48,482 nt of DNA from a virus (taxonomy: Duplodnaviria > Caudoviricetes), in IMG/VR virus record IMGVR_UViG_3300020043_005195, positions 1 to 48,482 of that record. The stretch is one strand, 5' to 3'. Positions 6,071-46,378 of the stretch are shown here, one piece after another. Below the pieces are notes generated by a model. That model made no database searches. It was not told the DNA's origin and was given only the letters and a program-made list of their open reading frames with translations. The stretch's first letter is position 1; every line of letters starts with the position of its first letter. The position numbers and the translations under genes were made by a program.

Positions 6071-9000
6071 ATGCTCGAATATAACGATGATATAGTTAAT
6101 GAGATTAAAAAATCAGAAGGCTTTGCCAGTAAGCCATATAAAGACACAACTAAAATGGCCATTGGCTACGGTCAAAACGATTTTGATCCCAAGATAAAAT
6201 CTGTGACTGAGAAGCAAGCAGACAAGATGCTCAGGTCTCACATGGATAAACTAAGTAAAGAGATTAATGCTGAACTTAAAGTCTCGGACTTTACTCCGGG
6301 ACAAGTGAAAACTATCTACGACTTCGCTTATAATATGGGCGTTCCTAAGATGAAAAAGCATGGGCTTTTTAAAAAGCTTAACGATGGAGACCTCGAAGGA
6401 TTCGGAAACGCTATTAAGAAATTCACTAAAGCCACGTACTACAAAACTGACAGATTCGGTCGAGAACTTAAAGATAGAAGAGGGAATCCTATCCCAGTAC
6501 TTAAAGAAGTTCCTGCACTCGTTAAACGCAGGGATGAGCGTTTAAAGTGGTGGAACGAAGGAACTCCAAAGACTCAATCCAACAACAGCCTAGACTTTGA
6601 TTTTAATTCTTTTGAAAATGAGTTTGAAAAAAGTTTACCCGAGCAAGAAAGAAATAGGCTTCAAGGTGCTTCGACTGCATTGCAGGCGGTAGCTCCGGAA
6701 CAGTTAAAGGGAGACGTAGCTCCGGAACTAGACTTTGATGCTTTTGAAAGTCAGTTCAACAGTGCAGATCCAAATACCCCAACTAGAAACATGAGAGGCC
6801 AAATATCTCAAGCCGCTAGAGGCGGGGATGAAACTCGTGTCTTAGCGGAAGAGGAAGCTTTCAGACTTCATAAGCAATACGGAGTACCCCTTGAAGAGGC
6901 TAAACAGAAACTAAGAGGGCAATCATTCGACGACATCATATCTGGAATTGATATTGATAATGTTACGCAGACTAATCCTAGAACTGCAGAGTTCATAACT
7001 AATCCCGATAACTATGTAATGTACCGCCAAGATCCTGAGACCATGAAAAAATTGGATGAGGGAGTATCTTACTTCAGTGAGTTTGGAACTGCCGCAATGA
7101 GAAGTTTTAGGGACTCGGTTCCTGAGACTGCTTACATCATGGCTGAAGTTAATGGCATGATGTCCAGAGAGGACATGATCCGTGAGCTTCAAACAATTCA
7201 GAAACGCAAGAACTCCGATGAGGCATTAAGCTATGATGCAGACATCGCTGAAGTTAATAGAGTAACTGAGTCCAGTAAAAAGAAACTGGCCAAGGGATTG
7301 CAGGGGATTGAAGATTTTTACGATCTAGAAAACAACCCATCTACAAATTTTAAACAGCTAGTTCAACAATATAAAGACGGTATTGAGTCAGGGATTATGA
7401 CTGCAGAGAGCGTCTACGACTTGATGAAAGCATACATTACCCACCCCGGAGCTTCAGGGATAATGCTAGGTAAAAGTGCTGCAGGCATGGCAATACCTAT
7501 TGCTGCCGGAGTCGTAGGAACTAAAGCTGGTATCTGGGCCGGTGCCCCTATGGGACCAAAAGGCTCCCTCGTATTAGGAACAGTCGGTGGGATCGGAAGT
7601 ACTTTTGTATCTTCTGCCGTGATGTCCTATTCAAGCTACATATCTCAAGAGATGGAAAAGTACCGTCAGAAAGATGGAACGATAGATTATAATGCATTTT
7701 TCAGTAAAGAAAATTATCCTGTAATTAAAGATGCAGCTTTTAGATATGCTGTAGCTCAAGGTGCGCTAAGCTCTATTCAAATTAAATTACTCGGACAATT
7801 CTTCGGCAGAACAGTCGGAGCAGAGACAGCTAAGGCAGTAGCCAAGGAAGCGGTAAAGACTCCAGTCAAAAGCATATTAGTCTCTTCACTAGGTAAAGTT
7901 AAAACTGCCGCCACTGGAGTAGCTAAAGAAGCCGTCTCGCAAGGTGCCAGTGAGTTTGCTGAGGAAGCTATCCCTTCTTATATCGCACGTAGAGCCCGTA
8001 CAGATCTAGGGGAGCTTACCGTAGAAGACTATGCTGACAACTTTATTAACTCAGTCTCAGAAGGATACCTAGGCGCTAAAGCCGGTTCTGTCATCGGACC
8101 TGTAGCCGCAGCTTTTAAATACCCAGAGAGATTCAAGCAAAAGAAAAAAGAGGAGAAAGCGAAAGCTGCTTCTGAGAGAGTTAAAGAGCGAACCGACAAG
8201 AAAGCCGCAGATACCCAGTCAACTATTAAGACCGAATCAGAACTTCGAAGTAAAGTGGCATCGGTTGTCAATACAGTCGAAGAAGCTACGAACTCAATCC
8301 GCTCATTTGAGCAGTCTCAAGAAATTAGAGAGACCTTAAAAAACAGTAAGACTAAAAATAAATACCCTGAGAAAACTAGAGAATTTATCAACAGTATTCT
8401 TAATCCAAAGCCTGAGGTTAAACCTGCCGAAACTGTAGTTCCTGAGGATATCGGTAAAGTTGATGATGCCATTGCTGTAAAAGAGTTTGACGACGAGGTT
8501 GTAGGAAAAAATCCATACGTATCAATATCTGCAGAAGACCTCGCCGATATCTTATTAATGCAAGGTAAGAGCCCTGATAAAGTAGTTAAGCTCATGGGCA
8601 CTAATATTTATGCTGACTACGGTAAAGCTAAAGAGAATCGCGGCGACATAGAGATACCTATCGCAGATTGGTATATGGCCACGGAAGAACATCCCGAGCT
8701 AGAAGTCGCAGCACGATACAACGGGGCTAAGTTCAGCCCACTCGAAGCCGAGTCAGTTCTTAATCAATTTGGAGATAACCCTTTCACAATGTTCAGTGAA
8801 GGAGAGATGGACGGGGACGTACCGCCTCCAATTCCGGGCACTGGGACTCCTCCTAGTTCAGGAGAGGTTAGAATAGAGCCGCCATCAGAGAAGCCATCTA
8901 TACACGCCAGTGGCGACGTGAGCATCGCTACTGCAGATGCGGATCCTAAGACTCAGGATACTCAATTTATCGAAGACGGACCGACCCCCGGACCGTATGA

Positions 9001-12000
9001 CAAAGAAACTAATCTTAAGCCTGTATCTGTTTTCGGAAGATTCAAGAACGCAGGCGAGCGCGAAGTACATAAGAAGATCCATCAACAATTATCTCTAGCT
9101 CTAGCTGAGACAAACATGGACGACGCTGAGATTCGCATAGCCGCCGATATCCAATTCAATCGTGTTCGCTATAGGGCTCAAGTTTTAGGCAAAGATATTC
9201 GAGACATTAAGGACAGATTCACCTTCAAGAAGATGTCGGCGGATGAGGCTAAACTTAGACCTAACTCCGTAGCCTTCGCGGATCCACTACCTAATAACTC
9301 TTATTTCGATTTTAGAGTAGTCTTTAGAAGAGACTCAAAGATCAATACGGTCATGCACGAATTTGGCCATACGTGGCTCTACGAGATGTCAGAAGATTGG
9401 GAACTGATGCACTCTATCCCTGAAGAATCTCTAACTCCGGAGCAGAAAGATTACAAAGAGGCAATGGATACTCTTAACGGTATATTCCAAGAGAAGGGAT
9501 TTCTCCCTGCCAACGAGACTATAGCATCTATAAATAACGTAGAATGGTTCAGCCTGCCAGAGAGCCACCCAAAAAGAATTGAAGAGATTAAGAAACGTAA
9601 ATTAATACACGAGACTTTTGCTCAGTCTGCAGAGAAATTCTTCCTTGAGGGAGATTTTGAAAATACTAAGATGAAGAGAGTACTAGAGGTATTCAGAAAA
9701 TTCTTCACTCGAATGGCCGAGTTTGTTGGTAGGGCTTACGAAAGACAAGGAATATTCCCGCTACAGATTAGTCCTGAAGTTCAAAGAGTTTTCAAAGCTA
9801 TTCTTGATCTTAACCAAAAGCAGGAAGAGATCCTATACCCTATGCTGTCGGAGCCCACGTTCGACTCTAAGATCCTAGGGGCTAGAGCTGGCGCTCACAT
9901 GGAAGCAGTTAAAGCTGCCCATGACCACACTATCGGTAAGTTCTACAACGAAGCCTTCAGACAGAAGCTCTCGGAGCGCGAGAAAGAAATTAAGAAGATG
10001 CAAGCCTTCGCCGAGAAGACTGCCGCTGAAAGAGTGGATTCACTCCCTTCTATGCAGATGCTTCGAGATTTCTACAGTGCAGCTGAGGATTTTAGAAACG
10101 GCAATGCAGAGTCTAGTCCTACAATATCTCACGAGTCTTTTGTCCGCGATCTATTTGACGGCAACGAAGCTGCAGCGATGGAATATAAAAAGCAGATCAG
10201 TTCCCTCTTTGTTGCAGGTAAAAAGAAAGGCGGAGCTGACGCCCGCGAGATCATGGCTAACTACAATATAGGAAGTAAAAAAGCTATGGTTGACGCCATG
10301 GTTGAGGCTTCAGCACGTGATAGATTAATCGACGAGGAGGCTAACGCCATATACGAGAAGATGCTTCCTACCCTCAAAACTAATGAGGAGCTACATGATC
10401 TAGCAGTCGAAGCAGTTCAAAATAAGAGCAAAGAGAAATACCTAAGACTTGAGATGGAATTTTTAATGGACATGGCACGCCCACAGTTCAAGCAAATGAT
10501 GGGGACAGTAGCCGCGCCTGCGGGAGACATAGCCAAGAAGATATCTCCTGAGTTTATTGAGGGGGCGGCAGATAAGATAGTTCGAGATACCAGAGTGAAA
10601 GCTCTTAGACCTATGACCTTCATTAATCGCTCCGACAGATTCGGGCGAAGTGCCTCTAAGAAGTTTCAGGCTGGTGATTTTATCGGAGCTTTTGAAGATA
10701 AGCAGATGCAGGCAGTATATTTCGAAGCGTTCAAGAGATCTGAAAAGCAAAGAAAGATCTTAGCCAAGACACGTAAACAAGTGGAGCGATTAACTCGGAG
10801 AAGTTTAAAGACTCTAAGCAAGAGCTATGATGAAGACGTAGTAACGTATCTGCGTGGTGTGATTCAGATGATCCGCATGAATCAGGTTCAAGCGATCCCA
10901 CATCTTAATGCTGAGAACTTTCACAACTCATATATTATAGCTGACCACCAAGTTGAGAGTATTAACGCTACTCTTGACAGCTTTAAGTCTCTCATGATGG
11001 GCAAGTACGTGGGAGATCCTACAGTCGAAGCGTGGCTAGAACTCTCTAATTTCCAGAATCAAGTTATGTCTTTAGCTGATGGAACTCTGTCAGTTCAGCG
11101 TGACCTCAAGAAAGTTAAACTTCTGGAGAGCGTAACTGAAGGGGCCAAGCAGATTATTACGGGTCAATCTGATACCAGTGGAATAGGCAACGATAATACT
11201 GGAGCTGCTATGTTAGCAGATGCCTACGAGAAGATAGTTCAGCAAGCAGGGCTCAACAAGTACCTTCAAAGTGTTCTCTATATCCGATCGATCTTCGCAT
11301 CTATGTTTAAATCTGATGCAGACTTTGTGAAGTCGGAACTAGGGAAGCAGTACTATGAGACAGTCGACGCATCTTCGACTTTCGATAATGCTTTCAGTGA
11401 GGAGATGGCGTCGATAGAGAAGATGGTTCGTAAAGTTATTCGCCAAGATAAAGGGTTAGCTAAAGTCTACGGTCCTCTTCTTAGAGCAGCTCCGATAGAT
11501 AAATTTAAAAAGACTCCAATAGTGTCGGAGCATTTGGGTGTTACGTTCGAAGATAAGTCAGAGATCATAATGCTCATGCTGTACATGGGCTCTGAGTCTG
11601 GAAGGATCAAGGTTTTATCGGGAGGCTATAAAGGTCAGAAGCTTGGGCGATTAGATGTCATGGCCCAGATCGATAAGAACGGCGAAGCTAACATCGTAGA
11701 GGTTCAAGCCGCGATAGATGCTCTAATCGACGAGGGTGTGATTACTCAAGCCGACTTAGATTTTGTGCAGGCAATTTTCGATACCTTTGCCAAGTACCAT
11801 GAAGACGTTAAGAGCGCGATCAAATATACCGACGGGTATACTCCGGGGACTATCGAAGCTAAGTCTTTCGAAACTAAACTGGGAACTATTAAAGGCGGGT
11901 ACATCCCTCTAGCTTCTGACGGTAACTACCTTAGTGACCGAGAGAAACGGGATGATGTTTTAAATCTTGATGCAGATTCGAAGTACATCATGGATCTATA

Positions 12001-13399
12001 CCCAATGCAGAATACCAGTATGGCTAAGTCAAGAACTAGCGATCAGTACAATTTGAATTTTAATTTATCTCGAATTACCTATGATCTTCAGAACCACATG
12101 AAGGTAGCTCTAATGCGTAAAACTCTCCACGATACTGGAAAATTCCTAAGCCATCCAATGATCAAAGAGACTATCTCTAAGCACCGTAAAGATATCTACT
12201 CTCAGATAATTCGCCCATGGTTCGAGCGTACTGCGCTCCAGAGATACTCTGCTGCCGGAGTTCCCTTCTTTGATGGGGTCTTTAACATTCTTAGACGAGG
12301 GACTTATATGAAAGCCTTCCTCTTTAACTTTAAGAGTATGGCCAAGCAGTACCTAGGTCTTGTTCCTGTGACGAAGGAAGTAGGCGCACTTCGAGTTGCT
12401 CATCAGATGCTAAAAAATCTTCACTCTCCTTCAGGCTATAGAGCAGCCAGAGATAGAGTTTCCAGTATGTCGCCTTCAATGAAAAACAGATTGGCAAGAC
12501 ACTACTCTAACCTTCATAGAGATCTAGATGAGCTGTCGAAGTCAGGTGGGTGGATAGCGGATACAAAAAACTGGGCGAACAGAATGTCTAGTTTACTTAT
12601 CCAAGCGGCACAAGGAACAGTCGACGTCGTAGTATTCGAAGCAGCTTACGACAAGGCTTTAGACTTAGGACTCAAGGGTCAGGACGCCACTAACTACGCT
12701 TACGACGTGGTAGTTAAGACACAATCATCGACGAATATAGCGGAAGCTCCTCGTGCATTTTTTGGCACTGGAACGGAGAAGCTCTTTGTTCAGTTTGCTA
12801 CCTATAACGTAGCAGCGTTTAATCAGTACTACATGGCTTACTCTAGAAACAGAGACAGCAAATGGGGCGCAGGATGGGCGCTAATAACTACTTCAGCTAT
12901 GGTCTCTATGCTCCCTCTTCTTTTAGAAAGTGCGCTGTTCTCCATGCTTCCTGAGATGCTAGGGATGGGCGACGATGAAGACGAGAAGAAAAAGAAGAAA
13001 GATAAATCAGTGACCGATGAAGTTCTAACTCGCTCAGCTCTAGGCATGATGTCTCACACTGCTCCGATAGTAGGGGACATAGCAGGTCGGGTAATGTTCG
13101 GGGAGAATAGAGTACGCCCGTTCCCTGCCGCTGCAGTATTTGACGATGCCATGACAGTTCGGAGAGCCATAGATAAGAAAGGCTACGGCGTGGATATGAC
13201 AGATAAAGAGTTCAGAACCATGATGGACTTTGGAACGACTTGGCTTAACCTTCCGCTCAATATTGTCAATAAGACTATGGATCTTGGAGACACCATAATG
13301 CCAGACTCCAGACAGGAAAAAGCTAGAGCTAAGATGAAGAGAAAAGCTCAGCTTAAGCGGGCGAGACTCCTGAAAAAGCGCGAAGATAATAGAAGATAG
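6071..13399 (+). CDS. Large internal virion protein with N-terminal GH24-type lysozyme and internal HExxH domain
   Basis: 2442 aa; 'SEGFASKPYKDT..MAIGYG' and 'DFAYNMG' lysozyme motifs; 'MHEFGH...HETFA' zincin-like motif. Confidence 0.8.
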   Translation: MLEYNDDIVNEIKKSEGFASKPYKDTTKMAIGYGQNDFDPKIKSVTEKQADKMLRSHMDKLSKEINAELKVSDFTPGQVKTIYDFAYNMGVPKMKKHGLFKKLNDGDLEGFGNAIKKFTKATYYKTDRFGRELKDRRGNPIPVLKEVPALVKRRDERLKWWNEGTPKTQSNNSLDFDFNSFENEFEKSLPEQERNRLQGASTALQAVAPEQLKGDVAPELDFDAFESQFNSADPNTPTRNMRGQISQAARGGDETRVLAEEEAFRLHKQYGVPLEEAKQKLRGQSFDDIISGIDIDNVTQTNPRTAEFITNPDNYVMYRQDPETMKKLDEGVSYFSEFGTAAMRSFRDSVPETAYIMAEVNGMMSREDMIRELQTIQKRKNSDEALSYDADIAEVNRVTESSKKKLAKGLQGIEDFYDLENNPSTNFKQLVQQYKDGIESGIMTAESVYDLMKAYITHPGASGIMLGKSAAGMAIPIAAGVVGTKAGIWAGAPMGPKGSLVLGTVGGIGSTFVSSAVMSYSSYISQEMEKYRQKDGTIDYNAFFSKENYPVIKDAAFRYAVAQGALSSIQIKLLGQFFGRTVGAETAKAVAKEAVKTPVKSILVSSLGKVKTAATGVAKEAVSQGASEFAEEAIPSYIARRARTDLGELTVEDYADNFINSVSEGYLGAKAGSVIGPVAAAFKYPERFKQKKKEEKAKAASERVKERTDKKAADTQSTIKTESELRSKVASVVNTVEEATNSIRSFEQSQEIRETLKNSKTKNKYPEKTREFINSILNPKPEVKPAETVVPEDIGKVDDAIAVKEFDDEVVGKNPYVSISAEDLADILLMQGKSPDKVVKLMGTNIYADYGKAKENRGDIEIPIADWYMATEEHPELEVAARYNGAKFSPLEAESVLNQFGDNPFTMFSEGEMDGDVPPPIPGTGTPPSSGEVRIEPPSEKPSIHASGDVSIATADADPKTQDTQFIEDGPTPGPYDKETNLKPVSVFGRFKNAGEREVHKKIHQQLSLALAETNMDDAEIRIAADIQFNRVRYRAQVLGKDIRDIKDRFTFKKMSADEAKLRPNSVAFADPLPNNSYFDFRVVFRRDSKINTVMHEFGHTWLYEMSEDWELMHSIPEESLTPEQKDYKEAMDTLNGIFQEKGFLPANETIASINNVEWFSLPESHPKRIEEIKKRKLIHETFAQSAEKFFLEGDFENTKMKRVLEVFRKFFTRMAEFVGRAYERQGIFPLQISPEVQRVFKAILDLNQKQEEILYPMLSEPTFDSKILGARAGAHMEAVKAAHDHTIGKFYNEAFRQKLSEREKEIKKMQAFAEKTAAERVDSLPSMQMLRDFYSAAEDFRNGNAESSPTISHESFVRDLFDGNEAAAMEYKKQISSLFVAGKKKGGADAREIMANYNIGSKKAMVDAMVEASARDRLIDEEANAIYEKMLPTLKTNEELHDLAVEAVQNKSKEKYLRLEMEFLMDMARPQFKQMMGTVAAPAGDIAKKISPEFIEGAADKIVRDTRVKALRPMTFINRSDRFGRSASKKFQAGDFIGAFEDKQMQAVYFEAFKRSEKQRKILAKTRKQVERLTRRSLKTLSKSYDEDVVTYLRGVIQMIRMNQVQAIPHLNAENFHNSYIIADHQVESINATLDSFKSLMMGKYVGDPTVEAWLELSNFQNQVMSLADGTLSVQRDLKKVKLLESVTEGAKQIITGQSDTSGIGNDNTGAAMLADAYEKIVQQAGLNKYLQSVLYIRSIFASMFKSDADFVKSELGKQYYETVDASSTFDNAFSEEMASIEKMVRKVIRQDKGLAKVYGPLLRAAPIDKFKKTPIVSEHLGVTFEDKSEIIMLMLYMGSESGRIKVLSGGYKGQKLGRLDVMAQIDKNGEANIVEVQAAIDALIDEGVITQADLDFVQAIFDTFAKYHEDVKSAIKYTDGYTPGTIEAKSFETKLGTIKGGYIPLASDGNYLSDREKRDDVLNLDADSKYIMDLYPMQNTSMAKSRTSDQYNLNFNLSRITYDLQNHMKVALMRKTLHDTGKFLSHPMIKETISKHRKDIYSQIIRPWFERTALQRYSAAGVPFFDGVFNILRRGTYMKAFLFNFKSMAKQYLGLVPVTKEVGALRVAHQMLKNLHSPSGYRAARDRVSSMSPSMKNRLARHYSNLHRDLDELSKSGGWIADTKNWANRMSSLLIQAAQGTVDVVVFEAAYDKALDLGLKGQDATNYAYDVVVKTQSSTNIAEAPRAFFGTGTEKLFVQFATYNVAAFNQYYMAYSRNRDSKWGAGWALITTSAMVSMLPLLLESALFSMLPEMLGMGDDEDEKKKKKDKSVTDEVLTRSALGMMSHTAPIVGDIAGRVMFGENRVRPFPAAAVFDDAMTVRRAIDKKGYGVDMTDKEFRTMMDFGTTWLNLPLNIVNKTMDLGDTIMPDSRQEKARAKMKRKAQLKRARLLKKREDNRR

Positions 13400-23101: not shown

Positions 23102-23324
23102 CGTTCTCTCCTTGATAAATTTCAATAATACTTTTGCCTAAAAATTTCTCGATCCATAAGAGGTGATGGGCGTTGAATCTTCGTCCTGCTAAAATACCTT
23201 TAATAGTACCTAGCTGCTCCTTCGCAATTCTTGATAGATCGTGGATAGATATGCTCTGATTCCTGAGTTCATTTGTCAAAAGCGTTGCAATAAGTTTATA
23301 AAACTTTTCATGTCTTTTATTCAT
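23046..23324 (-). CDS. XRE-like helix-turn-helix protein
   Basis: 'ISIHDLSRIAKEQLGTIKGILAGRR' HTH pattern; ATG overlaps the polymerase stop. Confidence 0.6.
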   Translation of the reverse strand: MNKRHEKFYKLIATLLTNELRNQSISIHDLSRIAKEQLGTIKGILAGRRFNAHHLLWIEKFLGKSIIEIYQGENGGNEKTSGGKDIQLSDFI

Positions 23325-26059
23325 TTTAGATATCTCCTACCTGTATCTACTGATGCACCGATTCTCATATCGGTACACCATGATGGATTAATACACATTA
23401 AACGCTCAAATTCAGCCTCTCGCCCCTTGACTGCTTGGGCCCACATTTCATCATGGATTAAGGTCAGAATGTCAAAGCCTGCCTGTTCCAAGCGGTAGAT
23501 AGCAGGGACTAGAATGTCCCTTGCAGTCGCCGATGTTACGTGCTCGGTTAGTAGCCCGCCGTATAGCTTCTTTCTAAATACTGCACCACCGTCGTCAGCT
23601 AAATAGGTTAGCCCTTCATGATCGATCTTGACATCGTGGTAAAATAGTTCCCCTCCACTCGGCAATCGGATCCTAACTCCGACAGCTCCGGGCTTAGGGC
23701 ACGACATTCGCATCACGTGAAGCTTGTTGTTGCATAGCTGAGTCGTAGTCCCGTACTGTGCGGCTGCCTTCATTGCGTACTCTAAGTTAGTCCATAGGTC
23801 AGTGATCTGGGGGTATTTATTTCTATAGGCATACACCGCTTGCTTGGCTAAGTTCTCAGTGATTCGAAGCCCTATCTTTTTAAAGACATCGACTCTGAAT
23901 TTGGCATGGCCCATTCCGTAACCACAATTATGGACTAGCCCTGATGAAGTCAAATACCTGTTCAGGTTCCCGCAGTCTTTTATGTCGTACACTGGGACGA
24001 TTTTTGTTATTAGTCGATTGGCTGACCACTCGAAGGTTTCCGGCCTCATAGTGTCCATCATTATTAATCCGGTCAATCGTGAAGCCCCATTGGTCAAACC
24101 CATCCAACGTAATGATATGTTCCAAAAATTCGCGAAAGGATTTGAATCGTACCTCAATTCCTCTACCGCCGTAGCGTGACCAATCTTTGTCCATGGTATT
24201 TTCACACCGTTTTCTTGCATTATGGTAGCAAGCGTTCCATCTTTTTCTAATCCTTGGGTCAGGAACCAAGTCGCTGCAAGCATCGGGTTTCGTATTTGTT
24301 CTGGCCCTAAGAGAGTTCGCGCAGTTAATACAAGTTCTGGCTCTGCCTCGCCAGAGTTTATCCACGCGAACAGACGCTTCAGTCCCGCATACGCAGCGGA
24401 CAGGGACATGACGTTCGACACCACGTTTGAACTCGTCTCCCACAACAGTCCATCCTCCAAAAGTTTGTCCCAGTATAGGGCTTTCGTATCCTCGCTTAGA
24501 GCCATTTCCACGGCGGTTAGCCACCCTTGGTTCGACAGTATTAAGTGATCCGGAGTCAATTCTATATTCAGTCTCTCGATCCGCATAACGCTCTTCATAC
24601 CGTTTACTGATAGTCCTCCGTGGCGGACAAACTTCTCCCCGTCCCATATTAAATCCTCCGATAATATATCCTCTATCGCGATAAGCCCGCGCTCAGTAAA
24701 CACTCTTGTCCATCCTGCCACGCACCCCAATGCCGCCGACTTACCAAGCTGTCTTTCATCGGAGTCTTTCTTTACTGTGCTAACGTCTATGCTGTAGATC
24801 GTAGCTGCCATATCTTCGTACCATCCGTCGGGTATAGGACCTAAGCCTACAAGCCAGAAGAGAACTGTAGGTTCAATACGAGACCAGTCACCACAGTAAA
24901 ATTCTAGCCCGTGATCAGGGATCCATATACGTCGAAGTAGGTTCTTTATAAAACCTAAAGGATCTTGCAGCGATGGGCGCTTGATCTTAAGTGGGGTAGT
25001 TATGTCGTCTGCGTTTAGATCGAAGTCAATCTTGTCGGGCTTCTTTCTATCCACTCGTGGGAAGTTTTGAATCTGAACTCCGCGACCTGCCCAGCGTTTA
25101 GTCTGAGCATAATGGTAGGCGAGGAGGTTATAGATTCTCCCGTTGTACATAATAGATTTAGCTGTATCTACTTTAGCTAAGCTTGTGGATCCTGCGAGGT
25201 CCTTAATCTCTAGTGCCTCTTTAGCAAAGGTAGGAATTTCAGGGCGATCATCAAGCATCATTTCCCTGATAGTATCAGCCTGCATATTTTCAATCCAAGG
25301 GTAGTACTGGCTGAACCACTCCTTCGTTTTAGTCGGAGAGTTTAATTTAACCTTGCCACCTACAAGTCGATCGAACTTAGCTGTGAGTGTAGGCATCTCT
25401 TCTTTTATAATTTTATCCATCTCATTGATAAGATCTGTATCAACTCTAATACCTCGAAGGTTTCTCCTGAAGGTCCACTCCCAAGCGAAACGCTCAGGTG
25501 CAGGGAGGGCAGGGCACAGATAGTATATATCTCGAAGCAGTCTAGTGTCGGTGCGCCCGTAGATCTCGAACTGTTCCCACTCATTCTCGTCAAGCTCAAT
25601 GAACTGTCCGGTTCTAGGGTTAGGCTTACACTGCTTGAGCATTAATTTTCTGCCCTCTTTATCTTTGTTGTATGGCATACCTAAGATATCAGCGGCACGT
25701 CCAAGACTTGCGCCGACTCTATAGTGGCAGGTGAGTGCCATGTTATCTTCTATGTTCTCAATCTTGGGATTCTCAATACAGCCAATGACTTTATTTTTGA
25801 AAGGGATCGTCCATATCAAGTAATCGAAGCCTATATTGTGCGCGATAAAATTATATTTGTGTGGGTTCATGGCGACTTCAATTAAGTCTTCATGAATATG
25901 CTGACCTTTGCGCCAAGCTTTCACGATACCAGTGCGACCGAAACACCAAGTTAGTAAGGTGGCTTCCGTCGAAGGGTGAAGGGCATAATTGATTGAGTCT
26001 ACCTCAGTAAGGTCAGCATGACTGCGGGTCTCAAAGTCGAAAAAGAAATCTATCTTCAT
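23321..26059 (-). CDS. Family A DNA polymerase containing an intein (912-aa precursor, 646 aa after splicing)
   Basis: ExoI 'FDFET', ExoII 'AHNIGFD', 'TKRWAG..VQIQNFP', motif A 'DWSRIE', motif B 'RQLGKSAALG/CGYG', motif C 'IHDE'. Confidence 0.95.
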   Translation of the reverse strand: MKIDFFFDFETRSHADLTEVDSINYALHPSTEATLLTWCFGRTGIVKAWRKGQHIHEDLIEVAMNPHKYNFIAHNIGFDYLIWTIPFKNKVIGCIENPKIENIEDNMALTCHYRVGASLGRAADILGMPYNKDKEGRKLMLKQCKPNPRTGQFIELDENEWEQFEIYGRTDTRLLRDIYYLCPALPAPERFAWEWTFRRNLRGIRVDTDLINEMDKIIKEEMPTLTAKFDRLVGGKVKLNSPTKTKEWFSQYYPWIENMQADTIREMMLDDRPEIPTFAKEALEIKDLAGSTSLAKVDTAKSIMYNGRIYNLLAYHYAQTKRWAGRGVQIQNFPRVDRKKPDKIDFDLNADDITTPLKIKRPSLQDPLGFIKNLLRRIWIPDHGLEFYCGDWSRIEPTVLFWLVGLGPIPDGWYEDMAATIYSIDVSTVKKDSDERQLGKSAALGCVAGWTRVFTERGLIAIEDILSEDLIWDGEKFVRHGGLSVNGMKSVMRIERLNIELTPDHLILSNQGWLTAVEMALSEDTKALYWDKLLEDGLLWETSSNVVSNVMSLSAAYAGLKRLFAWINSGEAEPELVLTARTLLGPEQIRNPMLAATWFLTQGLEKDGTLATIMQENGVKIPWTKIGHATAVEELRYDSNPFANFWNISLRWMGLTNGASRLTGLIMMDTMRPETFEWSANRLITKIVPVYDIKDCGNLNRYLTSSGLVHNCGYGMGHAKFRVDVFKKIGLRITENLAKQAVYAYRNKYPQITDLWTNLEYAMKAAAQYGTTTQLCNNKLHVMRMSCPKPGAVGVRIRLPSGGELFYHDVKIDHEGLTYLADDGGAVFRKKLYGGLLTEHVTSATARDILVPAIYRLEQAGFDILTLIHDEMWAQAVKGREAEFERLMCINPSWCTDMRIGASVDTGRRYLK
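23927..24724 (-). mobile_element. Intein (266 aa, residues 446-711) in polymerase motif B
   Basis: Block A 'CVAGWTRV', block B 'LTPDHLI', block F 'VYDI', block G 'LVHN' followed by +1 Cys; removal restores 'KSAALGCGYGMG'. Confidence 0.93.
23928..24647 (-). CDS. HNH-type homing endonuclease nested in the -1 frame of the intein
   Basis: 'GQTFGGWTV', 'RCVCG..TCINC', 'YGGRGI', 'IDRINNDGHYEAGNLR...NNKNR'; GGAGG 7 nt before the ATG. Confidence 0.88.
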   Translation of the reverse strand: MGRGEVCPPRRTISKRYEERYADRETEYRIDSGSLNTVEPRVANRRGNGSKRGYESPILGQTFGGWTVVGDEFKRGVERHVPVRCVCGTEASVRVDKLWRGRARTCINCANSLRARTNTKPDACSDLVPDPRIRKRWNACYHNARKRCENTMDKDWSRYGGRGIEVRFKSFREFLEHIITLDGFDQWGFTIDRINNDGHYEAGNLRVVSQSTNNKNRPSVRHKRLREPEQVFDFIRASP

Positions 26060-45372: not shown

Positions 45373-45798
45373 ATGGACGATACTAAATTAACTGAAAAAG
45401 AAATTGCTAAAGAAGCTTTAGAGAAGATCGATATTCAAAATGTCATGGGCTCTGATAGCGGTCGCCGTTTTGTATGGCGGATCCTAGAGTACTGCGGGAT
45501 CTATCGAGATATCGACGGGGAAAATATTGACGTTTACAAAGCCCTCGGCAATCGCCAAGCGGGGCTTTACATATTAGGAATTGTCTCTGATGTCTGTGAG
45601 GAACAACTGTTTCTCATGATGAAAGAGGCACGTAACAAAAAACTTTTAGAGGAGAGAGATTATGACTACAGCGAATACGGCACCAGCGGAAATAACACCA
45701 GCACCAGCGGCAGTGGCCACACCAGCGCCAGCGACGCCCTCGACCTCGACGGATACTTCGACTCCGGTCGCGCCTTCGACATCGACACCGTCATCTGA
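45373..45798 (+). CDS. Bbp19-like protein
   Basis: 'VMGSDSGRRFVWRILEYCG' immediately after portal. Confidence 0.7.
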   Translation: MDDTKLTEKEIAKEALEKIDIQNVMGSDSGRRFVWRILEYCGIYRDIDGENIDVYKALGNRQAGLYILGIVSDVCEEQLFLMMKEARNKKLLEERDYDYSEYGTSGNNTSTSGSGHTSASDALDLDGYFDSGRAFDIDTVI

Positions 45799-46378
45799 TA
45801 CACCTGCACCGGCTACGCCTCCAGTAGAGGAAAGCGTACTTGCAAAAGTAGATGATCCTGCAGTAGTTCCTCCAGTGGTAGAGCCTGAAGAATATGATCT
45901 AGAACTCAGTGCTGACTCTCCACTCTCAGAAGAGGATCTAGATAACGTAGCTAAGATTGCTGAAGATAGAGGGCTCACAAAAGAGCAAGCCACTAATCTT
46001 TTAAAAAATATGGAGAAAGCATATTCAACTGGAGCTGCGAAGGCGCTAGAAACTTCAAGACTTGAAAACGCAGAGATGAAAAAACAGCTAATTTCTGATC
46101 CACTTTTTAATTCAAAAGAAAAAATAGTTGAGAGTTTGGGAAAAATAAACAATGTTTTAGTTAAATTCGGAGGCGAAAATAGGGCTGAACTTATCAAGCT
46201 TTTTAAGGGTCCAGCGGGCAACAACCTTCACCTAGCTAAACTATTGATATCAATCGCAAATGCGGGCGCTGACGATACCGTGATAACCCCTAAAAATCCG
46301 GGCAATACCATCGTCGAAAGTGACCGTACAAAACAGCTTCGAGAAACCTACCCATCATTTTTTGAGAAAAAAGATTGA
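45662..46378 (+). CDS. Capsid scaffolding protein
   Basis: Pro/Ala/Thr-rich N-terminus, 'PEEYDL', 'GLTKEQA', C-terminal 'YPSFF'; precedes major capsid gene. Confidence 0.8.
   Translation: MTTANTAPAEITPAPAAVATPAPATPSTSTDTSTPVAPSTSTPSSDTPAPATPPVEESVLAKVDDPAVVPPVVEPEEYDLELSADSPLSEEDLDNVAKIAEDRGLTKEQATNLLKNMEKAYSTGAAKALETSRLENAEMKKQLISDPLFNSKEKIVESLGKINNVLVKFGGENRAELIKLFKGPAGNNLHLAKLLISIANAGADDTVITPKNPGNTIVESDRTKQLRETYPSFFEKKD

Follow-up and report, generated by a model that had tools for sequence, protein, structure and literature searches.

A phage DNA polymerase intein overlaid by a predicted homing endonuclease gene in a second reading frame

Introduction

In 2025, an analysis of actinobacteriophage inteins described homing endonucleases (HENs) of an EndoVII-like type that are encoded in frame 3 of the surrounding element, as well as others that are read antisense to it (Gosselin, Arsenault and Gogarten, 10.1101/2025.01.02.630785). 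In 2026, a cyanobacterial DnaX intein was reported to contain a LAGLIDADG open reading frame (ORF) in its +2 frame (Phillips, DeSimone and Gogarten, 10.64898/2026.09.14.751524). Both preprints regard endonucleases encoded out of frame within inteins as uncommon and as lacking bench tests. Related arrangements include the ShiLan domain, an out-of-frame HNH domain in phage methylases (Arsenault et al., PMC11855218), and fractured genes that contain split inteins (Dassa et al., PMC2677866). The element examined here is a 266-residue intein in the family A DNA polymerase (Pol) gene of IMGVR_UViG_3300020043_005195, a virus record (Duplodnaviria; Caudoviricetes) of 48,482 bases with direct terminal repeats, the whole of which was analysed and is called the window below. 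A separate ORF for an HNH-like nuclease lies within the intein in the +2 (that is, -1) frame; a first-pass annotation of the window, which had described this layout, suspected that it might have precedents, and the EndoVII-like and LAGLIDADG systems of 2025-26 are indeed such precedents.

Like the inteins of Gosselin et al., this one is a contiguous phage intein with a same-strand endonuclease ORF in frame 3 (+2), displays signs of ongoing transfer, and is compatible with the proposed invasion by a free-standing HEN. Unlike in those inteins, its ORF overlaps splicing blocks B and F/G, no in-frame member of its family was found, and its nuclease, which lacks a Pfam match, finds its best profiles among HNH PHROGs rather than the EndoVII-like type. 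With the DnaX intein it shares a +2 ORF with a putative Shine-Dalgarno (SD) sequence, a disordered in-frame middle, a frame-dependent ratio of nonsynonymous to synonymous change, and the coexistence of full, mini and empty alleles; the DnaX element differs in its LAGLIDADG enzyme, its chromosomal host gene, and an ORF described as lying between the splicing domains (10.64898/2026.09.14.751524). The ShiLan domain differs in having no splicing domain, a non-essential host gene and no SD found (PMC11855218). The loci of Dassa et al. are similar in that an endonuclease gene within the intein locus overlaps the C-terminal half, an arrangement that fits the split relatives described below, but they involve GIY-YIG or Vsr-like enzymes and a broken host gene, whereas the gene in the window is contiguous (PMC2677866). 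The element therefore has the tested features of inteins with an out-of-frame HEN, yet is neither EndoVII-like nor a canonical HNH system. No literature on this intein family was found, although subscription journals, InBase and bioRxiv supplements (including Supplemental Table 1 of Gosselin et al.) could list it; passages of two papers on the phages concerned contain no mention of the nested gene.

The arrangement is likely to represent a mobile polymerase intein for which a distinct +2-frame gene encodes the predicted homing endonuclease, ribosomes probably reaching that gene through an internal ribosome-binding site (RBS) on the polymerase mRNA.

The polymerase intein

The polymerase gene (23321..26059, minus strand, as are all features of the element) encodes a predicted family A phage DNA polymerase precursor of 912 residues, or 646 after predicted splicing, and matches PHROG 17 at E 2.5e-51; 77 of its 84 homologues are shorter than 800 residues, and 25 empty homologues fit a strict empty-site pattern. 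The class 1 intein (23927..24724; Pol residues 446-711) contains all of the splicing blocks previously read from it, namely C1, TPDH, VYDI, HN and C+1, and its residues C1, T57, H60, D247, H265 and N266 are invariant across 35 intein sequences. AlphaFold assigned a pLDDT above 90 to the ends of the intein and mostly below 50 to its middle, with values above 90 for the N-terminal splicing region (codons 1-80, 24485..24724) and of 85-97 for the C-terminal splicing region (codons 231-266, 23927..24034). All of the Foldseek matches listed for this model were inteins or HINT domains (best E 1.7e-3), and the intein profile matched the Mtu RecA intein at E 1.4e-4; Pfam returned nothing for the Pol-frame intein, with TIGR01445 falling below its cut-off. 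Two relatives (P0006 and P0290) with 655 of 673 polymerase residues identical were found to differ by a 266-residue intein. From these motifs, and from the replicative polymerase that serves as host gene, we infer that the precursor is spliced.

A profile search of the Pol frame produced no nuclease match, in agreement with the earlier observation that the in-frame middle of the intein lacks one, and the in-frame nuclease core expected of a canonical bifunctional intein was found in none of 199 polymerases (120 of 120 in the control).

A second gene in the -1 frame

The separate 239-codon ORF was found, as first annotated, on the minus strand at 23928..24647, and encodes an HNH-like protein with zinc-binding Cys pairs. 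Along the polymerase gene as a whole the +2 frame contains 68 stop codons, none of which lies between Pol codons 455 and 709, and the Pol frame is open throughout its 912 codons, such that both frames are stop-free across the nested ORF; the +1 frame, by comparison, has 32 stops inside the intein. When nuclease residues 49-215 were recoded synonymously, the Pol frame remained stop-free in 0 of 5000 trials, with a mean of 7.3 stops, and the dual openness of the two frames therefore exceeds chance. One antisense frame of the intein (23927-24724, plus strand) contains only two stops, probably as a by-product of dual coding.

Comparison of codon-position variability demonstrated that the nested frame is conserved in the middle of the intein and the Pol frame at its ends. 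Within the window's group of relatives, the most variable position is position 3 of the Pol frame in the exteins (0.69-0.70) and in intein codons 1-25 (0.65), and position 3 of the +2 frame in intein codons 73-240; the same switch was observed in two other groups, for three independent groups in all. Between Jerseyvirus Ent1 and EP23, the proportions of nonsynonymous and synonymous change (pN/pS) across codons 101-255 are 0.21/0.21 when read in the Pol frame, compared with 0.12/0.51 when read in +2. Synonymous change in the Pol frame, which is 0.62 over codons 1-30, is only 0.32 over codons 31-66. The +2 frame is open across codons 31-278 in 10 of 10 intein-bearing Jerseyvirus, Kagunavirus and Dhillonvirus alleles, and three of four listed variants in related strains of the window phage from nested codon 67 onward (from single low-depth contigs) are silent in the nested frame. 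The nested +2 frame is under purifying selection.

A family of overprinted elements

Scans of IMG/VR with single sequences from either frame found no relatives; alignment queries were needed. Seven other polymerases were then found to carry a 264-270-residue intein at the same site, 33-59% identical and with the same filler (compared as proteins), and in three relatives compared as DNA (L001, L015 and L016) the Pol frame is open and the nuclease lies in +2. Nuclease searches returned loci either within an intein or free-standing, and none in frame: 35 and 45, respectively, among the best 80, 10 and 53 among 63 further loci, and 29 and 51 among 80 genome loci. With duplicates removed, and with cultured-phage loci included and the 80 genome loci excluded, the element set comprises 24 +2, 30 +1 and four split elements (58). 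Inteins of this type occur at several PolA sites and in helicase-like genes, and 2,107 clusters, defined at 50% identity, are matched by an intein profile at E 1e-30. Among the best 150 proteins, with 230 inteins, a single in-frame nuclease piece was found, in a broken second intein without a C-terminal block; this tally is skewed towards out-of-frame members because the profile itself contains the filler. In P0400, translation of a second intein passes into the frame of the nuclease, and the protein terminates with no C-terminal block, the result of a frameshift or a sequence error.

Cultured phages carry the same layout. The nuclease is nested in nine of nine cultured-phage loci, and is unannotated as such in Jerseyviruses, EP23 and APSE-1: the GenBank record of Ent1 notes 'splicing domains' only, and that of APSE-1 (L178:2385-3053) lists P46, without a function, which corresponds to a truncated call of the nuclease from an internal Met. 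In APSE-1 the +1 frame is also open upstream of that Met, where it takes in the zinc-binding domain and reaches back as far as a GTG (codon 68). The record of LPSE1 calls a 247-residue coding sequence from the ATG at codon 31. Well over a hundred phage records in GenBank thus contain a functional-looking gene that annotation pipelines have missed, and a layout treated as rare elsewhere is what this large family, found in polymerases and helicases, normally shows.

These relatives bear directly on the concern that two compensating indel errors in the assembly had masked an ordinary in-frame HNH intein, a reading that now deserves almost no weight. In its favour, contigs of related strains leave the 3' junction (23927-24167) uncovered, and uncovered parts prove nothing in either direction. 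Against it, such contigs from two other runs span 24168-24318, 24332-24633 and 24652-24802 without gaps; a 230-nucleotide contig from another run crosses the 5' junction and differs there by 11 substitutions but no gap; the same filler recurs in seven independent polymerases; cultured phages share the layout; and indel errors would not leave the filler stop-free. An assembly error was rejected on these grounds, given that none of the 24 distinct +2, 30 +1 and four split relatives is in frame, and because both the DNA-level relatives and the switch of codon variability to +2 in the middle of the intein argue otherwise.

Four PolA inteins are split (L056:1823-2832, L072:2218-3236, L073:1287-2299 and L081:2218-3227): their N-terminal half stops after approximately 106-112 codons and their C-terminal half is read in a different frame, with the nuclease lying +1 relative to the former and +2 relative to the latter. 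In L055 (2262-3122 and 3501-4421), L056 and L073, two nested-nuclease inteins of different classes occupy one polymerase gene. Elements of the +1 class are also found in helicase-like genes (L020, L021, L082, L100, L103, L147, L153 and L163), and the family has therefore switched host genes. Mini-inteins of 124-164 residues (P0009, P0010, P0012, P0018, P0019, P0023 and P0030) cluster with members of the +1 class in a tree of splicing domains, which suggests that they may have lost a nested gene; in that tree the +2 elements fall on one side of a branch of weak support (81/20). Free, +1, +2, split and mini forms together provide a natural series for tracing how inteins gain endonucleases. Two relatives of the window polymerase (P0279 and P0304) are empty at this site and carry an APSE-like intein at a later YGG site.

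Probable translation of the nested gene

As first proposed, an SD-like GGAGG (24655..24659; -9.5 kcal/mol) precedes the nested ATG by 7 nucleotides and is formed, together with that ATG, from the intein codons S-E-D-L-I-W; among 29 other starts compared in this genome, 26 have a weaker site, a further entry having been listed on the wrong strand. The further proposal that the nested ORF spans the intein almost exactly is correct for the window, where the TAA is formed by the His-Asn codons, but does not describe a family trait. That stop is used by seven of 23 scored +2 elements (L179 was unscored), the others ending 22-70 nucleotides earlier, and was rejected as a designed feature, and the start typical of the family is +2 codon 31, five codons downstream of the window's codon 26. 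The family start arises from the codons of a W-D-G-x-x-W motif, with its ATG formed immediately before the second Trp; the window has Phe at that residue, and the corresponding triplet (24630..24632) is GTT and not a start.

An ATG at +2 codon 31 is present in 15 of 24 +2 elements versus 4 of 30 +1 elements (P 4e-4), and the +2 frame is stop-free from the WDG motif to block B in 22 of 24 versus 4 of 30 (P 6e-9), although both P values overstate the case because related elements are not independent samples; any start codon at that position is found in 21 of 24 versus 11 of 30. A strong SD at codon 26 is present in two of three elements without a codon-31 start (the window and L019) versus 1 of 21 others, a post hoc comparison with P of about 0.03. 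In L042, L050 and L059 the best SD lies at a GTG at codon 68, and stops precede it in two of the three. No stable hairpin was found over the window's SD (z -0.87), the folds obtained being dependent on the folding window. The phage is likely to use the upstream GGAGG and ATG at 24647.

No promoter-like site was found on the minus strand, and the nested gene is therefore likely to be carried on the polymerase transcript. The earlier suggestion that endonuclease expression is uncoupled from that of the polymerase is accordingly arguable for translation and splicing but not for transcription. A search for terminators on that strand returned a single site, a hairpin within the nested gene (24336-24355, minus strand), which is at chance level (one found versus 0.8 expected).

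If the nuclease were instead produced by programmed -1 frameshifting, it would be fused to the N-extein and the N-terminal region of the intein, with no internal initiation. The +2 frame, being equivalent to -1, is open through the block B region, which favours that mechanism; yet no slippery heptamer occurs in codons 26-100 of the window, only four of 24 +2 elements contain one (at differing places), one fixed position is enriched in start codons, and the +1 and split forms have SD-bearing starts of their own, all of which makes frameshifting extremely improbable.

A predicted nuclease site without its histidine

The nested protein is matched by PHROG 374 at E 9e-28, across residues 58-220 only, and its best nuclease profiles (PHROG 374, 3377 and 2081) all represent HNH families; Pfam gave no match. 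AlphaFold predicts that residues 51-220 (23988..24497) are folded and residues 1-50 disordered, and the folded part contains a predicted beta-beta-alpha-metal site, D192-R193...Y200...N204...N213 (24009..24074), in which an Arg occupies the position of the I-HmuI His. The HNH identity assigned at first sight holds as far as the family profile and the Cys pairs are concerned, but the protein is not a canonical HNH enzyme, because Arg stands in place of the general-base His. The Asp-Arg pair and downstream Tyr are present in 117 of 120 nuclease homologues, with the Tyr near-invariant, and all of the conserved Cys and site residues are retained in the window.

PacI is described as cleaving with a loop Tyr that substitutes for His (PMC5714182), and the nested protein may resemble PacI in this missing His and loop Tyr, and resembles I-HmuI in its motif spacing (PMC5714182, PMC4081073, PMC3384342). 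Both similarities are weak: the I-HmuI alignment, in which the Asp-His column reads Asp-Arg, has an E value of 0.4, and a fold search returned PacI at Z 4.3 and an rmsd of 7.0 over 92 aligned residues. Foldseek of the nuclease model against the PDB gave no match at E 0.001, PDB sequence searches, including one with the core alone, gave chance matches only, and the top viral fold match is the LPSE1 protein. From the sequence motifs, we infer a Tyr-type (PacI-like) nuclease site; if this is true, a Tyr-type homing endonuclease would constitute a new enzyme class.

Probable mobility of the element

Ent1 and EP23 are 82% identical in DNA sequence across the intein and 64% across the exteins, and an intein more alike than its exteins is what homing predicts; EP23 is also 93% identical to the empty allele of Maverick. 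Among 658 phage records that match the Ent1 gene, 160 cover at least 80% of it and many others match 71% in two pieces, the four fetched examples of which are empty at the intein site. In the window's clade, this intein is present in five of 84 homologues, two others having a different intein at a later site, and the extein tree, which has long branches, requires at least six changes of intein label (12 with, 25 empty and 54 unlabelled by the strict pattern). The nearest relative of the nested nuclease (L015) lies in a polymerase only 29% identical to that of the window, compared with 62-65% for empty polymerases. The distribution is patchy, and intein and extein histories are incongruent; the intein is probably mobile.

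In a nuclease tree of 130 rows, from which three +1 elements were left out, nested genes form at least three separate groups. One is large and contains the +2 and most of the +1 elements; the other two, an APSE-like +1 group and a split group, fall among free-standing genes, which fits repeated invasion.

Proposed mechanism and competing readings

Under the proposed mechanism, the Pol frame would yield the 912-residue precursor, from which the HINT domain is spliced out along with approximately 150 residues of filler that are kept merely stop-free. Ribosomes would also initiate at 24647 on the same transcript, producing a 239-residue protein with a flexible leader, a zinc-containing DNA-binding domain and a Tyr-type nuclease site without His, which would cut or nick the intein-free polymerase alleles of co-infecting phages, such that repair copies the element. 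A free-standing nuclease gene may originally have invaded a mini-intein and taken its start from conserved intein codons.

A broader generalization, for and against which the balance appears even, is that overprinting may be where this intein family, among the largest in phages, has stably settled, rather than a rare intermediate: conserved splicing-domain codons would also serve as the RBS and initiation codon for a Tyr-type homing endonuclease that lacks the His, its start migrating between lineages (codons 26, 31 and 68) and the enzyme never fusing in frame. If so, the long-known 'endonuclease-less' inteins of Jerseyviruses and APSE would be fully mobile. Cultured Escherichia coli and Salmonella phages carry the layout and have intein-free sister alleles, and homing by the overprinted nuclease is therefore directly testable.

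A number of observations weigh against the proposed mechanism. Synonymous recoding leaves the leader of the nested ORF stop-free by chance in 2.4% of cases and its tail in 5.3%; strong SDs at codon 26 are no more frequent in +2 elements (3 of 24) than in +1 elements (4 of 30); and SD strength at codon 31 is equal in the two classes (P 0.74), so that the SD there seems to arise incidentally from conserved intein codons, as a site that an invader could use. Seven of eight listed variants in nested codons 19-62 (again from single low-depth contigs) alter the protein, which indicates that the leader sequence is barely constrained. In a close relative (L001, 1434-2237), the nuclease gene is interrupted by a TAG (+2 codon 128), and this element has likely decayed. 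Added to these are the missing catalytic His, the weakness of the PacI and I-HmuI comparisons, and the absence of a visible co-conversion tract around the site in EP23.

Several of these points would be explained if the layout had been inherited from an active lineage and the nested gene of the window were now silent, inactive, or started at the GTG at 24524 (24522..24524, nested codon 42). Loss of the family's codon-31 start in the window, the GTG or ATG found at that downstream position in all five members of the close group, the mostly non-synonymous leader variants, and decay of the kind seen in L001 are all compatible with such a history. Nonetheless, it is considered unlikely: the frame extends for 254 codons without a stop, the conserved Cys and site residues are all kept, the variants from codon 67 on are mostly silent, and the strong SD at 24647 contrasts with -1.4 kcal/mol, and no SD-like site, at the GTG.

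Alternatively, the protein might be made but be an inactive DNA binder, or a nuclease for another site, with the intein spreading by ordinary recombination. The Arg at the general-base position, the lack of a co-conversion signal, and the presence of the same motif in free-standing relatives are consistent with that view, which we nevertheless regard as very unlikely in light of the purifying selection on the nested frame, the transfer of the intein between genera with 64% identical exteins, the coexistence of empty alleles, and the published precedent of PacI for cleavage with Tyr instead of His (PMC5714182). Homing by an internally initiated, overprinted nuclease accordingly remains the preferred explanation.

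Genome context

Short contigs from freshwater runs are 95-99% alike to the window, and a search for a host returned genome matches of at most 52% identity over short stretches, from which no host could be assigned. The window encodes podovirus-like capsid, head-tail connector, tail and internal-protein genes, and the neighbours of the polymerase gene include primase-VapE, resolvase, single-stranded DNA-binding protein (SSB), DUF2800 and SNF2-like genes. An ORF of 2,442 residues (6071-13399, plus strand) probably encodes a protein internal to the virion, and its N terminus weakly matches an endolysin family. A PHROG 528 gene and a protease-family ORF (45373-45798 and 45662-46378, plus strand) overlap, as called, by 137 bases.

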